Source of the DNA: Candidatus Kerfeldbacteria bacterium
GTDB taxonomy: Bacteria > Patescibacteriota > Patescibacteriia > JACPL01
Direction of reading: 5' to 3'
DNA: 55,164 nt
NCBI GenBank assembly: GCA_016182525.1
Contig: JACPGL010000028.1
Coordinates: 1-55,164, forward strand
Shown here: positions 8,050-26,337 of the stretch, in pieces
Layout of the letters: the number at the start of each line of letters is the position of its first letter
Numbering within the stretch: the stretch's first letter is position 1
Translations under genes and position numbers: made by a program
Notes under the pieces: model-generated
Seen by the model: the letters and a program-made list of their open reading frames with translations, nothing else
Told to the model about the DNA's origin: nothing
Database searches by the model: none

Positions 8050-8351
8050 AGTGTGATCCTTTCGTGAATGGATCAGGAGCGATCACACGAGTTCATGCGG
8101 CTTTTCCGCGAGTCAATGCGTGAAAACGCCAGCATTACTTGCCGGAATCCCGTAGAACGGATGTCCGTTGACGATCGATCATCAATTGTCGGAAAGAGAT
8201 AGTCATGGTCATTGTTGGGAGGGCAAAACCCGTGTACTCGAACCTGGTCGTTAAGATGAAGTCAGAACGTAGAGTAGCATGAATACCCGCCAAAGTCAAA
8301 ACACCCGAAAATACCGGAAAACGGGCAAAAAACGGGTTGTGGCGGCAAAAG

Positions 8352-8397
8352 TGTCCAAAGCTAAGCTTTGAACATGGCAAAAGCTTAGCTTTGGACA
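8352..8397. repeat. 46-bp double-palindrome repeat, copy 1 (downstream flank of clpP)
   Basis: TGTCCAAAGCTAAGCTTTGAACATGGCAAAAGCTTAGCTTTGGACA; 45/46 identical to 9040..9085. Confidence 0.85.
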
Positions 8398-9006: not shown

Positions 9007-9036
9007 ATTGTACGTGCCAGCATGATGTGCTGTCAA
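9007..9036 (-). promoter_or_regulatory. clpP promoter, TTGACA-18-TACAAT, -10 ends 6 nt before the ATG (leaderless architecture)
   Basis: Minus strand reads gcTTGACAgcacatcatgctggcacgTACAATacctctATG. Confidence 0.6.
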
Positions 9037-9039
9037 GCA

Positions 9040-9085
9040 TGTCCAAAGCTAAGCTTTGGACATGGCAAAAGCTTAGCTTTGGACA
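9040..9085. repeat. 46-bp double-palindrome repeat, copy 2 (upstream flank of clpP, overlaps the stop of the DHH gene)
   Basis: TGTCCAAAGCTAAGCTTTGGACATGGCAAAAGCTTAGCTTTGGACA. Confidence 0.85.
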
Positions 9086-20179: not shown

Positions 20180-20649
20180 GGATTCGCAGGTTCCCATTTC
20201 ACGTCCCGTCCTTTCGTTGCCCAAAACATTTCGTGAATTTTCTTTACCGCGTCCAGCATTTCTTGCGCGTGCGCAAGACTGACTTCTTGTTTGGCAGAGG
20301 AACATGCCTTTGCCGCTTTCCAAAAGATCGTGTGGAGGTCAGGATACTTCTCAAGATGTTCGGGCTTAAAATAATCGGTCCAGAGCACCAAAAGATGATG
20401 CTTGGTTTCTTCCGCTTGCTGTTCTTTAATTTGGATATAACGAGCCGCCGTGTTGAGATACGCGAGCATGGCTTGGGTGTTGCCCGCTGCCGGCATTTCG
20501 AGCGCAAGGAGTTTTTTCGTCATGGATACGACCGCTTCCGCCGTGACGCGCGCTTGTGCCGGATCATACACGCCGCACGGTCCGTCACAGTGCGCATACA
20601 CTTCGTCGGCCGGTTCGAACGCTCGCAAAAGAGAAGTCAAAAATTTCAT
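20176..20649 (-). CDS. sodN: Nickel-containing superoxide dismutase precursor
   Basis: 157-aa ORF; propeptide MKFLTSLLRAFEPADEVYA followed by Ni-hook HCDGPCGVYDPAQAR. Confidence 0.95.
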   Translation of the reverse strand: MKFLTSLLRAFEPADEVYAHCDGPCGVYDPAQARVTAEAVVSMTKKLLALEMPAAGNTQAMLAYLNTAARYIQIKEQQAEETKHHLLVLWTDYFKPEHLEKYPDLHTIFWKAAKACSSAKQEVSLAHAQEMLDAVKKIHEMFWATKGRDVKWEPANP

Positions 20650-20668
20650 GGGTAGAAAATGAATGATC

Positions 20669-20887
20669 TTATTCGTTTTTGGATGAGCGCTCGCGTGAGC
20701 GTGTGGCCATGACTCGCCCGATCACCACTCCAACGATCACTGCAACAACAACCGGCAAAAGATGCGTCGGCGAAAGATAATGGACAAACTCTGTTGCCGG
20801 TGCTATCGCATCTGCATGTCCATCGTGCGCATGGGCGACGATGGGCAGCAGGAATGATGCAACGAAGAGAGGGAGAAAATGTTTCAT
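20669..20887 (-). CDS. Small secreted/membrane-anchored His-rich protein (possible metal-binding accessory of the Ni-SOD operon)
   Basis: MKHFLPLFVASFLLPIVAHA-HDGHADAI... then TM LLPVVVAVIVGVVIG; 19 nt upstream of sodN on the same strand; an upstream ATG at 20911 is also possible. Confidence 0.6.
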   Translation of the reverse strand: MKHFLPLFVASFLLPIVAHAHDGHADAIAPATEFVHYLSPTHLLPVVVAVIVGVVIGRVMATRSRERSSKNE

Positions 20888-20936
20888 ACGTGATGAGTTA
20901 AGTGTCAACATATCCAGTATACCACGCTCGCTCGAT

Positions 20937-20962
20937 AAGAAAAGGCCGGAGACGCTCCGGCC
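20937..20962 (-). terminator. Intrinsic terminator (bidirectional-looking)
   Basis: GGCCGGAG-acg-CTCCGGCC with T-runs on both strands, immediately after the stop of the 20969..21205 fragment. Confidence 0.55.
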
Positions 20963-20968
20963 GTTTCT

Positions 20969-21205
20969 TTATGCGATGATTGACCCTGCCCACAAATCTC
21001 CAAGAAATGTTTTCCAAGGCATAATCGTTATGCCGTTGACATCGCGAGATCGCCTATCCATCGAGACAATGATCGCCTTTTTGGGTTTATATTCTTCTCG
21101 AAACGCTCTCATACTTCGTGAATGATGCGAGTGAACCTCGGAGACGCCCTTGACTTCGAGCGCTTGTACATAAGTTTTATTATTGCATGATATTCTAAAA
21201 ATCAA
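20969..21205 (-). pseudogene. C-terminal fragment of a DUF4143/AAA-type ATPase (COG1373-like)
   Basis: 78-aa ORF ...ALEVKGVSEVHSHHSRSMRAFREEYKPKKAIIVSMD...ITIMPWKTFL resembles only the C-terminal about 80 aa of about 400-aa ATPases; the ATPase domain is absent. Confidence 0.5.
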
Positions 21206-21241
21206 CTTTAGTATATCATGTAGAAAGCTTTGAAAATCAAT

Positions 21242-21275
21242 GAAGAAACGCCCGGAGACGTTCGGCCGTTTCTTC
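21242..21275 (-). terminator. Hairpin downstream of tRNA-Glu
   Basis: GAAGAAACG...CGTTTCTTC 9-bp stem plus an inner CCG/CGG stem; loop sequence related to the 20944-20962 hairpin. Confidence 0.35.
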
Positions 21276-21283
21276 TAAAAACT

Positions 21284-21358
21284 TGGTAGCCCCACGGGGA
21301 ATCGAACCCCGGTTACCAGGATGAAAACCTGGTGTCCTAACCACTAGACGATAGGGCC
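21284..21358 (-). tRNA. tRNA-Glu, anticodon UUC, CCA encoded
   Basis: Reverse complement GGCCCTA TC GTCT AGTGGTTA GGAC A CCAGG TTTTCAT CCTGG TAAC CGGGG TTCGATT CCCCG TGGGGCT A CCA. Confidence 0.9.
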
Positions 21359-21403
21359 GTGGTTTTTTTCGAGCAAACGCCGAAAATACAAAAGCAGTCT
21401 ACT

Positions 21404-21430
21404 GGAGAATTGACGCAGCGTCAAGAGTCG
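21404..21430 (+). repeat. 27-bp direct repeat, left copy, flanking the MntA/HepT cassette
   Basis: GGAGAATTGACGCAGCGTCAAGAGTCG; 26/27 identical to 21934..21960. Confidence 0.85.
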
Positions 21431-21433
21431 AGT

Positions 21434-21626
21434 CTACTCCTCTAAAAGCTTTTCAACAGCTCGACGAAGAGATGGGAGATCCTCTTGAACGGTCTTCCAT
21501 ACCACCTCAAGATCCACACCAAAATACTCATGAGTCAAGATATTCCGCATTCCCACAATATCGTCCCACGGGATATTCTTCGCCTTCAAGGATATGACCG
21601 AGGTATACGCTAGGATCGATTTTCAT
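21434..21626 (-). pseudogene. hepT: Decayed HepT (HEPN/DUF86) toxin: internal deletion plus frameshift
   Basis: Frame 1 from ATG 21626 gives MKIDPSVYLGHILEGEE...; a second frame gives NIPWDDIVGMRNILTHEYFGVDLEVVWKTVQEDLPSLRRAVEKLLEE* with the RxxxxH HEPN motif. Only 64 codons of space versus about 110-140 expected. Confidence 0.7.
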
Positions 21627-21897
21627 AGAGTATCTTCTGATCCTTGAGGATTCGCTGTTTGATGCGTGGATGAAGAGACCGATATGTCACAAGATCAACG
21701 GGCTTCCTGACAAGGCGTTCAAGCTCACGTTGAAGATGAGCCACCTCGAGAAGGGTCGGAGTGATGGAGAATTCCACAAGGAGGTCAATATCACTGCGGG
21801 GAGTTTGCTCTCCTCGTGCAACCGATCCAAAAAGTGCGGCCTTTTTGACCCCACGTCGTTTAAGCAGAGAGATCATTTTTTTCGTTTGAGTTGTCAT
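21610..21897 (-). CDS. mntA: MntA-type minimal nucleotidyltransferase antitoxin
   Basis: 95-aa ORF, FGSVARGEQTPRSDIDLLVEF (GS...DxD NTase motif); 3' end overlaps the hepT remnant start by 17 nt. Confidence 0.85.
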   Translation of the reverse strand: MTTQTKKMISLLKRRGVKKAALFGSVARGEQTPRSDIDLLVEFSITPTLLEVAHLQRELERLVRKPVDLVTYRSLHPRIKQRILKDQKILYENRS

Positions 21898-21933
21898 AAA
21901 ACTATTGTATCAGGATTCATTACAAAATGAAAG

Positions 21934-21960
21934 GGAGAATTGACGGAGCGTCAAGAGTCG
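21934..21960 (+). repeat. 27-bp direct repeat, right copy; contains the -35 of the tsaD promoter
   Basis: GGAGAATTGACGGAGCGTCAAGAGTCG. Confidence 0.85.
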
Positions 21961-21968
21961 CGTATGCT
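21940..21968 (+). promoter_or_regulatory. tsaD promoter TTGACG-17-TATGCT, -10 ends 6 nt before the ATG
   Basis: aaTTGACGgagcgtcaagagtcgcgTATGCTgtcggcATG. Confidence 0.55.
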
Positions 21969-21974
21969 GTCGGC

Positions 21975-23045
21975 ATGATGATCCTCGGGATCGAAACGTC
22001 ATGCGATGAAACGTCGGCTGCCGTGTTGGAGGTGAAACGCGGACGGTTTGATTTGCGGTCACACGTTGTGGCCTCGCAAGTGGCGGTGCACACGAAAACC
22101 GGCGGTGTGGTGCCGGAGGTGGCGGCGCGCGAACACATGGTCACGATCCTGCCGACGATTCAGAAGGCGCTTGAGGGCGTAAAGCCGTCGTCGCTTGATG
22201 CGATTGGCGTGACGAGCGGGCCGGGGCTGCTCACCTCCCTGCTTGTTGGCGTCGAAACCGCAAAGGCACTTTCGTATGCATGGAGTGTGCCGCTCGTGCG
22301 CGTAAATCACATCGAAGGACACATTTACGCGAACTGGCTAGAGCCGACACTCGCAACGAGTGAGAACTCGTCATTGCGAGGAGGCGCGCAGCCGACGAAG
22401 CAATCTGACGCGAAGCGTCATCCTGAGCAATGTCAGGGTGAGCCTGTCGAACCCCTTGTCGAAGGATCTATACAGATCGCCACGTCGTCCCGACAAATGT
22501 CGGGACTCCTCGCGATGACGGATACGCAACTCTTCCCTCTCCTCATTCTTGTCGTCTCTGGCGGGCACACTGAACTCATTTTGATGAAAGGCCACGGACG
22601 ATACACAAAGATCGGCGGCACACAGGATGATGCAGCTGCGGTGCTTTATGAAACGCAAAGCCAGAGATCCTTCGACTCGCTTCGCTCGCTCAGGATGACA
22701 AACGCGCCCTTCAAGATGACAAAAGGGAGAGTCAACAACATTGCCGCGTCATTCCAACAAGCGGTGGTGGATGTGCTTGTTGAAAAGACGATACGGGCAG
22801 CAATAAAGCACAAAGTCAAAGGCGTGTTGCTCTCTGGCGGAGTTGCCGCGAACCGCCTCTTGCGAGAAACGCTTTCGGAACACGTCAAGAACGAACTCCC
22901 CGGCACATTCTACGCCCAACCGCGCCGCGAGTACTGCACCGACAACGCCGCAATGATCGCCGCAGCCGCCTATTTTCACGCTCGCAAAAAGGATTTCACG
23001 CCGTTTCGAAAACTTAAAGCCGACGCCAACTGGGAACTCGTCTAG
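21975..23045 (+). CDS. tsaD: tRNA N6-adenosine threonylcarbamoyltransferase TsaD, interrupted in-frame by repeat elements and lacking the central conserved segment
   Basis: MMILGIETSCDETSAAV, VVPEVAAREH, GPGLLTSLLVG, NHIEGH, VVSGGHTEL, GGVAANRLLR, CTDNAAMIA; the ORF is open throughout. Confidence 0.85.
   Translation: MMILGIETSCDETSAAVLEVKRGRFDLRSHVVASQVAVHTKTGGVVPEVAAREHMVTILPTIQKALEGVKPSSLDAIGVTSGPGLLTSLLVGVETAKALSYAWSVPLVRVNHIEGHIYANWLEPTLATSENSSLRGGAQPTKQSDAKRHPEQCQGEPVEPLVEGSIQIATSSRQMSGLLAMTDTQLFPLLILVVSGGHTELILMKGHGRYTKIGGTQDDAAAVLYETQSQRSFDSLRSLRMTNAPFKMTKGRVNNIAASFQQAVVDVLVEKTIRAAIKHKVKGVLLSGGVAANRLLRETLSEHVKNELPGTFYAQPRREYCTDNAAMIAAAAYFHARKKDFTPFRKLKADANWELV
22370..22519. mobile_element. 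150-bp MITE-like palindromic element inserted in-frame in tsaD
   Basis: Terminal inverted repeats GTCATTGCGAGG (22370-22381) and CCTCGCGATGAC (22508-22519), 11/12 complementary; length is exactly 50 codons; carries family-1 and family-2 modules. Confidence 0.6.
22666..22699. repeat. Half copy of the family-2 element inside tsaD
   Basis: GATCCTTCGACTCGCTTCGCTCGCTCAGGATGAC is the reverse complement of the GTCATCCTGAGC...GAAGGATC module. Confidence 0.7.
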
Positions 23046-23082
23046 ACCTGCCAAACATAGCGTGTGAAGGACGCGCCATTAT

Positions 23083-23313
23083 TTATTTCTTCGCAAACTC
23101 CAAAAACTCCTCCACGGTGAGACCGGCCTGTCGAATAATTGCGCGAAGCGTTCCTTTTTTGATGTCGCGGGCGTGAATTGGGATAACTGGCTGATGCGAT
23201 GATCCGTCTTTGACCATGATGAGATGACTTCCGCGTTGCCGGTATTGTCGATAGCCCATCCGCTCAAAGGCGCGAACCACCTCGCGAGGTTTGAGTGACG
23301 GGAGCACCGGCAT
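23083..23313 (-). CDS. hicA: HicA-family mRNA interferase toxin
   Basis: 76-aa ORF, LKPREVVRAFERMGY...RGSHLIM...IPIHARDIKKGTLRAIIRQAG. Confidence 0.85.
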   Translation of the reverse strand: MPVLPSLKPREVVRAFERMGYRQYRQRGSHLIMVKDGSSHQPVIPIHARDIKKGTLRAIIRQAGLTVEEFLEFAKK

Positions 23314-23316
23314 ATC

Positions 23317-23574
23317 CTAAGCTGGGATCCGATCAAGATCAATCGAGATCTTTCCCTTAAAAAAGTTCGGTTCAATGTCTTCGGGAAACGGCAGCTTTCG
23401 CTCGGCAAGGGTTTCCAGTGTCAGTTCAATCGCCTCTCGCGCGTTCTTTTTTGCTTCTTCTACTGTTTCTCCTTGCGTGTGGCAACCGGGCAGTGCGGGA
23501 ACTTCAACACTAAATCCGCCGCTTTCGTCATCGGGTGTAAAAAGGACCGTATATTGGAGTATTTTGTGAGCCAT
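23317..23574 (-). CDS. hicB: HicB-family antitoxin (short form, no obvious DNA-binding domain)
   Basis: 85-aa ORF, YTVLFTPDDESGGFSVEVPALPGCHTQGETVEEAKKNAREAIEL. Confidence 0.8.
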   Translation of the reverse strand: MAHKILQYTVLFTPDDESGGFSVEVPALPGCHTQGETVEEAKKNAREAIELTLETLAERKLPFPEDIEPNFFKGKISIDLDRIPA

Positions 23575-23597
23575 ATCGTTTGAATGTATCTGATTCG

Positions 23598-23626
23598 AGT
23601 ATACGAGCTGCTCTATCGTTTGTCAA
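23598..23626 (-). promoter_or_regulatory. hicBA promoter TTGACA-17-TATACT
   Basis: Minus strand gTTGACAaacgatagagcagctcgTATACT, 23 nt before the hicB ATG. Confidence 0.6.
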
Positions 23627-23637
23627 CGGAGGCGAGC

Positions 23638-23734
23638 AAGGTCGGATCCAAAACCGGCCTTTGAGATCCGACCCAAAAGAGCCATTTTGGATCCGACCTT
23701 TTTGGGCCGTTTTAGGTCGGATCTTGTTTTTTCC
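23638..23734 (+). promoter_or_regulatory. Four GGTCGGATC units in alternating orientation forming alternative hairpins; the last hairpin plus T-run looks like an intrinsic terminator just upstream of ribBA
   Basis: Unit 1 23638-23653 is the perfect 16-nt complement of unit 3 23685-23700; unit 2 is 23665-23673. GATCCGACCT (23690-23699) pairs with AGGTCGGATC (23714-23723), followed by TTGTTTTTT. Confidence 0.4.
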
Positions 23735-23758
23735 TCATATCCATACTATAGTCACGAC

Positions 23759-24958
23759 ATGAATACGCCCCAAGAATTGATTGAAGAGATCAGAGCCGGC
23801 CGGATGGTCGTGCTTATGGATGATGAAACCCGCGAAAACGAGGGGGATTTAGTGATGGCTGCCGAAAAAGTGACGGCAGAGGCGATCAATTTTATGGCAA
23901 CGTTTGGCCGCGGGCTCATCTGTGTGCCGATGACCGAGAAGCGTTTGGATGAACTTGGTCTCGATCAAATGACTGACATAAACACCGAAGCCCATGAAAC
24001 CGCATTCACCGTTTCAGTGGATGCGAAACACGAAACCACAACCGGCATTTCCGCACACGACCGCGCGACAACCATCAAAACCATGCTCGCACCCGAAACC
24101 AAACCCGAAGATTTAGCTCGGCCAGGCCACGTGTTCCCTCTTCGCGCACTCGAGGGAGGAGTATTGCGCCGCGTTGGCCACACCGAAGCGTCCGTGGATC
24201 TTGCGCGCCTGGCTGGGCTGCAACCTGCGGGTGTGATCTGCGAAATCATGAGCCACGATGGCACCATGGCTCGCCTCCCTGAACTCCTCGACTTTGCCGC
24301 CGTGCACAACCTCAAAATCGGAACCATCAAAGATCTTGTACACCACCGCCGCACGCGCGAAAAGCTCGTGGAACGTGTTGCCTGTACGCGCCTCCCCACG
24401 CGCTACGGCGACTTCTCGGCGTGCGTCTACGAAACGACTGAAGACAGCTATCATCACATCGCGCTCGTGAAAGGTGACGTAGCGGGCAAGAGCAATGTAC
24501 TCGTGCGCGTGCACTCGCAGTGCCTCACGGGCGACGTGTTCGGCTCCAACCGCTGCGACTGCGGCGAGCAACTCCACGCCGCGCTTGAAATGATCGAGCG
24601 CGAAGGTCAAGGCGTGCTCCTGTACATGCGTCAAGAAGGCCGCGGCATTGGGCTGCTCAATAAAATGAAAGCGTACGAACTGCAAGAGCAGGGTTTGGAC
24701 ACAGTTGAAGCGAACGTTCAACTGGGATTCAAACCAGACCTGCGCGACTACGGCACCGGCGCGCAAATCTTGAAAGACCTCGGCCTCACGACCATTCGCC
24801 TCCTGACCAACAACCCAAAAAAAGTCGTGGGCTTGGAAGGATTCGACCTCACCATCACCGAACGCGTGCCCATCGAAATGCCTGCAAACGAACACAACAC
24901 AACCTATCTCAAGACGAAGAAGGAAAAGCTGGATCACCTCCTTCATTTTATTACCTAG
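23759..24958 (+). CDS. ribBA: Bifunctional 3,4-dihydroxy-2-butanone-4-phosphate synthase / GTP cyclohydrolase II
   Basis: [36 protein letters not shown] (RibB half); [33 protein letters not shown] (RibA half); start at Met25 of the ORF-track entry. Confidence 0.95.
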
Positions 24959-25045: not shown

Positions 25046-25630
25046 ATGAAAAAAGACTATCTCCTCGATCTGGTACGCTCAAAAAACACCGTTTTCACCA
25101 CCAACGATGTCTCTTTGCTTTGGGGGGAATCAAACATCGCGTTCATCAGAAAAAAAATGTATCGGTACATCAAGGCAGGTAAATTGACCTCCGTTAGAAA
25201 AGGGATCTACGTTAAGGACAAGCAGTATGAGAAGTACGAACTGGCCACAAAAATCTTTACGCCCTCCTACATCAGTTTCGAGACCGTCTTGGCAAGCGCA
25301 GGCGTTACTTTTCAATTTTATAGTCACATTTTTGTCGCCTCGTATTTAACCCGCGAATTGACGATTGATGAACAAATCTATTCGTTCAAGAAAATCAAAG
25401 ACTCCATCCTTACGAACAAAACTGGCATCGAAGTGAGAGATAATTATTTTATCGCCTCACCCGAGAGAGCATTCTTGGATGTTGTCTATCTCAACACCGA
25501 TTACTTCTTTGACAATCTTTCGAATATCAACTGGAAAAAGGTGTCTTCCATTCTCCCGATCTATAACAATAAACGCATGGAAGCAAAAGTGAAAAAATAT
25601 CAGAAAGACACTGAAGAAACTCAAGAATGA
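25046..25630 (+). CDS. abiEi: AbiEi-family antitoxin-like protein (short form)
   Basis: 194-aa ORF; N-terminal wHTH-like ...FTTNDVSLLW...IRKKMYRYIKAGKLTSVRKGIYV; directly upstream of the AbiEii gene. Confidence 0.7.
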   Translation: MKKDYLLDLVRSKNTVFTTNDVSLLWGESNIAFIRKKMYRYIKAGKLTSVRKGIYVKDKQYEKYELATKIFTPSYISFETVLASAGVTFQFYSHIFVASYLTRELTIDEQIYSFKKIKDSILTNKTGIEVRDNYFIASPERAFLDVVYLNTDYFFDNLSNINWKKVSSILPIYNNKRMEAKVKKYQKDTEETQE

Positions 25631-25644
25631 TTTTTTGAAAACGC

Positions 25645-26337
25645 ATGCTCACGATTGAAAAACACAAAAGTATTCTTATCCGGATTCTGAAGGACATCTA
25701 TACCGATAACACGCTCGGCCCTCTTTTAGGATTCAAAGGCGGAACCGCTGCGTTCTTATTCTACGATCTCCCGCGATTTTCGGTCGACCTTGATTTTGAT
25801 TTACTTGATGCGAGTACAGAGGACGAGGTTTTTGAAAAAGTTGGCACGATTCTTTCGGGATATGGAAAAGTCAAGGGGCAAAGAAAAAAATACTACACAT
25901 TATTTTTCGAACTTTCTTATGCCGACGCCGACCAGAACATTAAAGTCGAAATCAGCCGCCGCTCTTTTGAATCAAAATATGAGGTGGTGAACTACTTTGG
26001 TATTTCTATGAACGTGATGGTGAAAGAAGATATGTTTGCAAACAAAATCATGGCTCTCTACGAACGAATGGAACGAGCGAATCGAGACATTTTTGATGTG
26101 TGGTTTTTTCTCCAAAACAACTGGCCAATCAATGTAGAATTGGTTGAGAAGAGAATGGAGCTGCCTTTTCAGGAATTTCTTGCAAAGTGCATTCGAAAAT
26201 TGGAAAAAATCTCAAGCAGGAGTATTTTGGCCGGTATGGGTGAGTTGCTTGATGCCAAACAAAAGGCGTGGGCAAAGGCAAAATTAAAACAAGAGACGCT
26301 TTTTTTGCTCAAGGTGCTGCTTGATCAAAAAAAATAA
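25645..26337 (+). CDS. abiEii: AbiEii/AbiGii-family nucleotidyltransferase toxin
   Basis: 230-aa ORF, LGFKGGTAAFLFYDLPRFSVDLDFDL signature. Confidence 0.85.
   Translation: MLTIEKHKSILIRILKDIYTDNTLGPLLGFKGGTAAFLFYDLPRFSVDLDFDLLDASTEDEVFEKVGTILSGYGKVKGQRKKYYTLFFELSYADADQNIKVEISRRSFESKYEVVNYFGISMNVMVKEDMFANKIMALYERMERANRDIFDVWFFLQNNWPINVELVEKRMELPFQEFLAKCIRKLEKISSRSILAGMGELLDAKQKAWAKAKLKQETLFLLKVLLDQKK

Follow-up and report, generated by a model that had tools for sequence, protein, structure and literature searches.

How a gene cassette can enter an essential regulatory element and leave the host alive is the question raised by one locus of contig JACPGL010000028.1 from a Candidatus Kerfeldbacteria bacterium, a member of the Candidate Phyla Radiation (CPR; Patescibacteria). 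The whole stretch of 55,164 nucleotides that was analysed is referred to here as the window. In this locus a toxin-antitoxin pair, mntA-hepT, with a broken toxin gene, lies between a tRNA-Glu gene and tsaD, and it is bracketed by two copies of a 27-bp direct repeat. The initial annotation, made from the sequence alone, had proposed that the cassette was inserted at the tsaD promoter and that a 27-bp site was duplicated, or served for recombination, in the process. This proposal was supported by the finding of an empty site in a relative, and we consider insertion of mntA-hepT accompanied by a long duplication of the target to be probably the best explanation of the locus.

The direct repeat, GGAGAATTGACG[C/G]AGCGTCAAGAGTCG, is present at 21404-21430 (left copy, with the C allele) and at 21934-21960 (right copy, with the G allele), the two copies being identical at 26 of the 27 positions, as annotated. 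A search of the 55-kb window allowing up to three mismatches returned these two matches, and none of 100 shuffled sequences gave a match. In the repeat finder, the pair reached a length of 35 nt, with 89% identity. Scanning other DNA for GAATTGACGNAGCGTCAAGAG yielded no match in GTDB genomes and a single one in JGI metagenomes, which was located in a phage open reading frame (ORF) in an unrelated context and corresponds to a chance-level frequency; no further cassette junction was found among them. The left neighbour is the gene for tRNA-Glu(UUC), at 21284-21358 on the minus strand (predicted by ARAGORN; Rfam tRNA, 64.4 bits), which is transcribed away from the repeat and separated from it by 45 nt, not by the 46 nt given at first. 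An Rfam search of 20500-23800 matched this tRNA alone and nothing at the repeat element. The right neighbour is tsaD, at 21975-23045 on the plus strand, for which the protein database holds a product of 356 aa (P0001) with the same start at 21975.

Species-representative genomes gave best identities of 41% for tsaD and 57% for MntA, and the informative relatives were taken from the protein index. The TsaD proteins closest to that of the window were P0003 (locus L083) and P0002 (locus L082). Locus L083, from SRR22388054, reads tRNA-Glu, a diverged spacer, TACT, a single 27-mer with the G allele, CGTATGCTG and the tsaD ATG. It thus joins the flank on the left of the window's left copy to the one on the right of its right copy. 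Judged by its sequence, L083 corresponds to the empty site that had been predicted (tRNA-Glu, one 27-mer, tsaD). A divergent tRNA-Glu/tsaD arrangement with a gap of 115-137 nt was also present in four distant CPR genomes (L003, L029, L057 and L064). This compact arrangement indicated that the empty state is ancestral and the insertion derived. Two other genomes carried different occupants in the gap, a gene similar to those of extracytoplasmic function (ECF) sigma factors in L002 and a major facilitator superfamily (MFS) transporter gene in L047, so that the gap is a recurrent insertion point. Nucleotide identity of tsaD was 81.7% between the window and L083, 78.7% between the window and L082, and 78.3% between L083 and L082, values that point weakly to the window and L083 being sisters.

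The nature of the duplicated segment became apparent from a promoter scan. On the minus strand, TTGACG(21424)-17-TAGACT(21396) was found upstream of tRNA-Glu, its -35 box being read as CGTCAA at 21419-21424 in the left copy. On the plus strand, TTGACG-17-TATGCT (21940-21968) was found upstream of tsaD, with TTGACG of the right copy (21940-21945) as the -35 box, in agreement with the initial annotation. The tsaD -10 box, TATGCT at 21963-21968 on the plus strand, stands 6 nt before the ATG at 21975 and is common to L082, L083, L085 and L089, all of which keep the entire promoter half ATTGACG-17-TATGCT-6-ATG. The core of the repeat had been described as a palindrome and as the tsaD -35 element. 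The palindrome, TTGACGnnnCGTCAA, was confirmed, and its interpretation was refined: it most probably represents two face-to-face TTGACG -35 boxes, one per divergent gene, rather than a recombination site, so that the 27-mer would serve tRNA-Glu in addition to tsaD. The 27-mer is predicted to be the core of a compact bidirectional promoter for tRNA-Glu and a leaderless tsaD, and each of the two neighbour genes would still have a complete promoter after the duplication. Together with its right flank, the right copy of the window was identical to L083 at 36 of 36 positions, and the adjacent spacer was only about 62% identical. This indicated that the element is under strong constraint, and for that reason the identity between the repeats is a poor clock.

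The 503 bp between the repeats (21431-21933) contain two genes, mntA and a remnant of hepT, the stop codon of which (21434-21436) lies 3 nt off the left repeat; ORF and Pfam analyses bore out what had been read from the sequence in this respect. The antitoxin gene mntA (21610-21897, minus strand) is intact and codes for a nucleotidyltransferase of 95 aa that contains the motif GSX10DXD as GSVARGEQTPRSDID, the database calling a shorter start that gives 88 aa. MntA matched Pfam Polbeta/NTP_transf_2 (2e-19) and reached 61.7 bits with the NCBIfam MntA_antitoxin model, for which the cut-off is 60. In the region upstream of the gene (21898-21933, minus strand), an extended -10 box, TGATACAAT, at 21912-21904 ends 6 nt before the mntA ATG, and mntA is predicted to be leaderless. 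From hepT, also on the minus strand, there remain 15 N-terminal codons (MKIDPSVYLGHILEG, 21582-21626), the start of which overlaps the end of mntA, and 48 C-terminal codons plus the stop (21434-21581) in a different frame, with the deletion junction at 21582/21581. The C-terminal part contains RNILTHEY, which corresponds to the RX4HXY motif, and matched Pfam HepT-like (5e-17). When its frame (21434-21589, minus strand) was compared with the HepT profile, as had been suggested, only positions 75-120 of 120 were covered, and it scored 36.3 bits with NCBIfam HepT_toxin against a cut-off of 60, below what is required of a full-length HEPN toxin. Alignment with the intact HepT of 110-111 aa of the nearest cassettes sized the deletion at 143 nt, which equals 47.7 codons and therefore shifts the frame. 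Thus, the 48 C-terminal codons and the change of frame stood as annotated; the 17 N-terminal codons became 15, and the estimated loss of about 50 codons became 47.7.

An independently assembled Logan contig, L084, was identical to the window over 21404 to ~22425, including both repeats and the hepT deletion. This showed that the broken hepT is not an error of a single assembly, and the full-length gene that mistaken indels would have concealed was not recovered. The first base of the left 27-mer is precisely where contig L084 (from SRR12113385) stops; the assembly graph may branch there, owing to allele heterogeneity or amplification, or the stop may be a simple matter of coverage. The MntA homologues nearest to that of the window, encoded in loci L085-L092, were 76-80% identical and had the same N-terminus, and an intact HepT of 110-111 aa followed mntA in every relative locus with a long enough contig. 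Intact hepT in all these relatives and the same deletion in the second assembly support the view that hepT decayed after the insertion, and that mntA would be left as an orphan antitoxin. This agrees with the later inactivation of the toxin that had been proposed, with the antitoxin (its GSX10DXD motif) and its own leaderless promoter (TGATACAAT) being kept.

The boundaries of the cassette were defined by the same homologues. Homology ended abruptly at the hepT stop codon on one side and about 36 nt upstream of the mntA ATG on the other, after ...AAAAT[A/G]AAAG. The right edge, which reads ...AAAATGAAAG in the window, was kept in L085, L089, L091, L092 and L088, with divergence starting right beyond it, and in the window this edge is the exact start of the right 27-mer. 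On the hepT side, the cassettes of relatives end in CTACT or CTACA. Such sharp ends were found among the 76-80% identical homologues in four other contexts, and the cassette appears to be a minimal unit made up of a promoter plus two genes. Since homologous cassettes do not carry the 27-mer and L083 has one copy of it, the repeat derives from the target and not from the cassette. The GC content at third codon positions (GC3) was 45-50% in the cassette against 65-71% in tsaD, and the cassette composition looks foreign.

Two of the related loci have layouts of their own. In L092, a cassette of the mntA-hepT family with an intact hepT follows shortly after the 3' end of tsaD and lies between the two copies (L092:1624-1682 and 2366-2424; 88% identity) of a 59-nt direct repeat, in which the tsaD terminator hairpin and a GGATCCGACC motif are contained. 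In L088 (1200-2940), the mntA homologue (79%) adjoins 17 nt that repeat part of the tRNA-Glu 3' end, and the complete tRNA-Glu is about 1.6 kb away, a layout that looks like a small island integrated at a tRNA 3' end.

Locus L082 (1-1330) provided a second filled site. It starts within tRNA-Glu, and the gap between this gene and tsaD is taken up by a minus-strand gene for a GT4 glycosyltransferase (L082:131-1231), again with a copy of the promoter core on either side. The copy on the tRNA side, CAGTCTACTGAAAAATCGAAAGAGCGTCAAGAG, has kept CGTCAA and the minus-strand -10 box, and its plus-strand -35 box has decayed to TCGAAA. The copy on the tsaD side, AAGTCTTGGGAATTGACGAGCGCGCAAGAGTTGCGTATGCT, has kept TTGACG and the plus-strand -10 box, and its minus-strand -35 box has decayed to GCGCAA. 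Both copies aligned significantly to the single L083 site, the alignments overlapping by about 25 nt. The presence of a different cargo within the duplicated promoter indicated that the duplication belongs to the target, or to selection on the target, and not to the toxin-antitoxin cassette. The copies of the window are still identical at 26 of 27 positions, including the halves that are not needed, with tsaD diverged by some 18-21% among the three genomes, which argues that the window event is younger than the L082 event and independent of it.

These comparisons also bear on the possibility that no insertion took place, either because the two repeats go back to distinct old promoters or operators and the cassette was lost from L083, or because the arrangement is an assembly artefact. 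Recombination between the repeats would indeed regenerate the exact L083 sequence, and the strong constraint on the 27-mer deprives the identity of the repeats of its value as a clock. Nevertheless, cargo-free compact tRNA-Glu/tsaD arrangements are widespread in CPR genomes, the cassette has a foreign-looking GC3, and the promoter halves that are not needed, decayed in L082, are intact in both copies of the window; as for an artefact, two assemblies agree. We regard this possibility as the least probable of all those considered.

Hardly more probable is that an enzyme made the duplication, namely a trans-acting transposase or integrase with a fixed long duplication, or a tyrosine or serine recombinase acting at a 27-bp attachment (att) site by the tRNA. 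Candidates for such an activity are IS1202-like elements, which generate 24-29-bp duplications, and a Cas1/casposase-like enzyme. The length of the repeat is within the range of IS1202-group duplications and att cores, its core is palindromic, the site adjoins a tRNA gene, and the cassette of the same family in L092 has its own 59-nt direct repeat. On the other hand, the repeat finder, ORF and Pfam analyses detected no terminal inverted repeats at the cassette ends and no recombinase gene or other family-matching ORF in the insert. The 3-nt-spaced palindrome is accounted for by the two -35 boxes, and the repeat is situated within the promoter of the tRNA gene and not at its 3' end. Moreover, repeat lengths vary from locus to locus (27-35 nt in the window, about 25-35 nt in L082 and 59 nt in L092), a different cargo is present at the same site in L082, and homologous cassettes elsewhere have no 27-mer and unrelated flanks.

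A further feature of the left junction has to be considered, an octamer, AGTCTACT ("a"), that occurs in two exact copies in the window, directly before and directly after the left 27-mer ("b"), giving the order a-b-a[cassette]b-c. The first copy (21396-21403) bears on the minus strand the tRNA-Glu -10 box TAGACT (21401-21396) identified by the promoter scan. The second copy (21431-21438) abuts the left 27-mer, and in its last 5 nt it comprises the hepT stop codon together with the 2 nt that precede this codon in the hepT sense. This order could have arisen in two steps. Slipped mispairing between the octamers AGTCTACT and CGTATGCT, which flank the 27-mer and are identical at 5 of 8 positions, would first make a 35-bp tandem duplication (a-b-a-b-c) with two complete promoters and a dispensable joint, in which the cargo would land later, between the second "a" and the second "b" in the window and between the first "b" and the second "a" in the case of the L082 glycosyltransferase gene. 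Such a sequence of events would account for the perfect (8/8) copies of AGTCTACT on either side of the left 27-mer, the sole two in 55 kb, for the order a-b[GT4]a'-b-c in L082, and for other insertions in the window genome that have no long repeats. It requires, however, that each of the two lineages underwent a pair of rare events, since the very different decay of the copies shows the window and L082 events to be independent, and no cargo-free tandem intermediate was found. In addition, CTACT, which makes up 5 of the 8 bases of the octamer, is native to the cassette end in relatives, so that only 3 nt are left to explain. We consider two steps unlikely, though still to be reckoned with.

The right junction suggests yet another route, in which the donor cassette was already upstream of a tsaD promoter, as it is in L085 and L089. 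Recombination would have been anchored in the promoter and the 5' region of tsaD, and the left end would have been joined illegitimately just after the 27-mer of the recipient, thereby duplicating the segment from the start of homology to the joint. The right junction is equal within 2 nt between the window and L085/L089, and the right repeat copy starts exactly at the end of the cassette homology. The low GC3 of the cassette, the occurrence of window-type and L085-type contigs in the same sample (SRR12113385), and an identity of 79% for MntA versus 53-59% for TsaD also point in this direction. This last contrast is weak evidence, since L085 and L089 too are more similar in MntA (97%) than in TsaD (82%). 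No donor-type promoter bases were present by the junction, both copies of the window being of the L083 type, and the parallel prediction failed for L082: the nearest homologues of its glycosyltransferase gene (56% and 45%) are located in polysaccharide gene clusters and not beside tsaD. Transfer anchored by homology is, in our judgement, distinctly unlikely.

We favour a direct insertion with target duplication, which would have proceeded as follows. Ancestrally, one compact promoter with opposed -35 boxes, each 17 nt from its own -10 box, would have driven tRNA-Glu on the minus strand and, divergently, tsaD on the plus strand. A self-contained cassette with an extended -10 promoter, a leaderless mntA and an overlapping hepT, delimited by the hepT stop on one side and by a point about 36 nt upstream of the mntA ATG on the other (some 650 bp when intact, 503 bp now), would have entered the core of this promoter. 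Such a cargo, having neither recombinase nor transposon ends, may have been joined into a break in which both ends kept the 25-35-bp core, as could result if long staggered nicks were filled in or if repair synthesis had an equivalent effect. The 27-bp core of the target would thus have been doubled, tRNA-Glu being served by the left copy with its -10 box and tsaD by the right copy with its own, and selection would have retained only events that left both promoters whole. The 143-nt frameshifting deletion would later have destroyed hepT and made mntA an orphan antitoxin. The sequences show that the repeat came from the target, and they show the empty site, the derived state, the boundaries of the cassette and the toxin deletion; the function of the promoters is inferred. 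That duplication and insertion were a single event, as against the two-step or homology-anchored variants, is a claim that in our estimation falls just short of an even bet.

Several observations weigh against direct insertion with target duplication. The empty site is known from one contig, L083, and promoter activity of the repeat is a prediction only. The exact repeat of 27 bp is shorter than the >30 bp of restriction-modification cases, the operational cut-off of Furuta, Abe and Kobayashi 2010 (PMC2853133); the duplication measures 27 bp in the exact register (26/27) and 35 bp either at 89% identity or, in the other register, as an a+b unit. The order a-b-a[cassette]b-c is not predicted by a plain staggered-cut duplication of "b" and fits a prior 35-bp tandem duplication. 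The junction between cassette and promoter is the same within 2 nt in L085 and L089, where TsaD is only 53-59% identical, which hints at co-transfer with the promoter-tsaD flank or at a site preference. Finally, an AbiE-like cassette that separates ribBA from valS, and whose site is empty in L082, shows no long repeat, and the long duplication is therefore not a general by-product of insertion in the window genome.

The genes around the cassette also showed traces of rearrangement. Compared with L083, tsaD of the window has a 150-nt in-frame insert (22370-22519) resembling a miniature inverted-repeat transposable element (MITE), with 14-nt inverted ends GTCATTGCGAGGAG and CTCCTCGCGATGAC, and a 162-nt in-frame deletion (junction 22637/22638) that has removed the codons for the conserved GEAFDKVAKLLGLGYPGGP...SGLKT. 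At about 22665-22725 there is a second short insert, which encodes SFDSLRSLRMT, and tsaD of L082 has related inserts at both insert positions. The window tsaD looks damaged, though its frame is open. In L085 (1350-1450), about 100 nt with a GGGATTCAACCC...GGGTTGAATCCC hairpin are found between the conserved tsaD promoter with its ATG and the actual tsaD start; in L089, the tsaD promoter directly abuts the start codon. After tsaD, the window contains a hicA/hicB pair (23083-23574); an unrelated gene at that position in L082 and L083 indicated a substitution rather than a simple insertion. The interval between hicB and ribBA (23638-23724) holds a cluster of inverted repeats containing GGTCGGATCC, and similar motifs in L085, L091 and L092 suggest a clade-wide family of small repeats. 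The AbiE-like cassette lies within 25046-26337, between ribBA and valS, and is low in GC. Its toxin gene, of the AbiEii family (230 aa, Pfam 1e-19), is preceded upstream by a 194-aa gene without a Pfam match that is presumed to be the AbiEi-like partner; L082 has 56 nt only at this position. Around the hicAB and AbiE-like pairs of the window, the direct repeats detected were only a 13-nt (11/13) and an 8-nt match, consistent with chance. Elsewhere in the window, a 60-nt direct repeat (88% identical; 8338-8397 and 9026-9085) with two TGTCCAAAGCT.AGCTTTGGACA palindromes occurs on both sides of clpP and could be an operator, a terminator or an element of the repetitive extragenic palindromic (REP) type. 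Since clpP belongs to the core genes, the presence of repeats on both sides is not always a mark of insertion.

Directly downstream of tRNA-Glu, a terminator-like hairpin, AAGAAA.G.CCGGAGACG..CGGCCGTTTCTT, is present in two copies (20937-20969 and 21243-21274), the only ones in the window, which bracket a 273-nt segment of low GC. Inside the bracket, a 78-aa ORF on the minus strand (20969-21205) had no Pfam or NCBIfam match and looks like a gene remnant. The segment 20937-21274 may be a second insertion with target duplication. It is conceivable, if improbable, that a trans-acting process dedicated to CPR bacteria opens DNA at short regulatory palindromes (promoter cores and terminator hairpins), with staggered ends of 25-60 nt, and installs "promoter plus gene" cassettes that carry no recombinase. 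Such a process would unite the promoter duplications of the window and L082, the 59-nt terminator duplication of L092, the duplicated terminator on either side of the gene remnant at 20969-21205, and the recurrence of the cassette by tsaD or tRNA-Glu in several arrangements.

Taken together, the three loci provide an example from uncultured CPR bacteria in which the same site is seen in three states, empty (L083), with a toxin-antitoxin cassette (window) and with a glycosyltransferase gene (L082). They show how genes can enter amid an essential regulatory element without death of the host, the shared promoter core being duplicated in both filled cases. In the older case, L082, each copy has shed the half that it does not need, which amounts to subfunctionalisation at the scale of a 27-bp promoter. 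The locus also documents the usual fate of such cassettes, with the toxin lost and the orphan antitoxin retained. No new kind of system is revealed; this is a fairly ordinary case of a known route of gene entry, which is hereby extended from restriction-modification genes to a toxin-antitoxin pair and a metabolic gene, and this argues that the insertion mechanism is independent of a DNA-cutting cargo.

Known classes of mobile elements and recombination sites were compared with the locus. An integron attC site is about 57-141 nt long, has paired inverted core sites (GTTRRRY and RYYYAAC) at the cassette boundary and travels with the cassette. This class was rejected: as a single strand, the 27-mer element forms a weak 6-bp hairpin (-4.6 kcal/mol) that is no better than those of shuffled sequences, the junctions AAAG/GGAGAA and GAGTCG/AGTCTA have no GTT core, and homologous cassettes do not have the repeat. 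The same hairpin, not above shuffles, led to rejection of a structured recombination site. Islands in tRNA genes carry an integrase gene, and the tRNA 3' end forms their direct repeat; an integrase-mediated island was rejected given that the 503-bp insert has no integrase and that the repeat falls in the tRNA promoter, with 45 nt between it and the 5' end of the tRNA downstream of it. Transposons and insertion sequences are recognised by a transposase and terminal inverted repeats, or by ends of the MITE type common to all copies. They were rejected because the cassette has no terminal inverted repeats, its ends are the hepT stop and the mntA promoter, and the lengths of the flanking repeats vary by locus.

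Two general processes offer closer parallels. Homology-facilitated illegitimate recombination in natural transformation, attributed to de Vries and Wackernagel in 2002, reportedly tends to delete recipient DNA. The window could similarly have one homologous anchor (the promoter and the tsaD 5' end) and one illegitimate joint, with which the L085/L089 junction is consistent; it differs in showing a duplication and no donor-type bases by the junction, and the prediction for the glycosyltransferase gene failed. The duplication-degeneration-complementation model, credited to Force and colleagues in 1999, is said to have been framed for duplicated genes. In accordance with it, each promoter copy of L082 has kept just the -35 box of the adjacent gene, and the window would be an earlier stage in which both copies are whole; here, in contrast, what was duplicated is a bidirectional promoter of 27-35 bp, as a side effect of gene insertion.

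As to the cargo, the motifs that define HepT/MntA (HEPN/MNT) type VII systems are GSX10DXD and RX4HXY (Yao et al. 2020, PMC7641770). The window pair shares with these systems the position of mntA upstream of and overlapping hepT, the GSX10DXD motif, RX4HXY in the form RNILTHEY, and the Pfam families PF01909/PF01934. It differs from them in that the toxin gene is broken by the 143-nt frameshifting deletion, so that only the antitoxin could be made, and from its sequence the pair is best classed as a decayed HepT/MntA type VII module. As to the mode of entry, restriction-modification genes make insertions whose target duplications are long and variable, in the absence of mobility genes, the repeats often spanning gene starts or stops and the target remaining intact (PMC2853133). 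The window resembles these insertions (Nobusato et al. 2000, Gene 259:99; PMC2853133) in several respects: the cargo is a small addiction-type module without transposase, integrase or terminal repeats, the direct repeats can be aligned with the one copy that a relative (L083) has at its empty site, the repeat is locally unique, with two copies in the 55-kb window, the insert's GC content is below that of its surroundings, and the repeat spans a regulatory boundary with the target genes intact. It departs from them in its cargo, a type VII toxin-antitoxin pair, in its exact repeat of 27 bp (35 bp at 89%) versus >30 bp, in its duplicated target, a predicted bidirectional promoter core and not a gene start or stop, and in its host, a CPR bacterium. 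Breakage of DNA by the restriction enzyme, suggested as a driver of the restriction-modification cases, is inapplicable to the RNase toxin of the window. On this comparison, insertion with long target duplication, which as a class has so far been described for restriction-modification genes, would be the best fit for the window.

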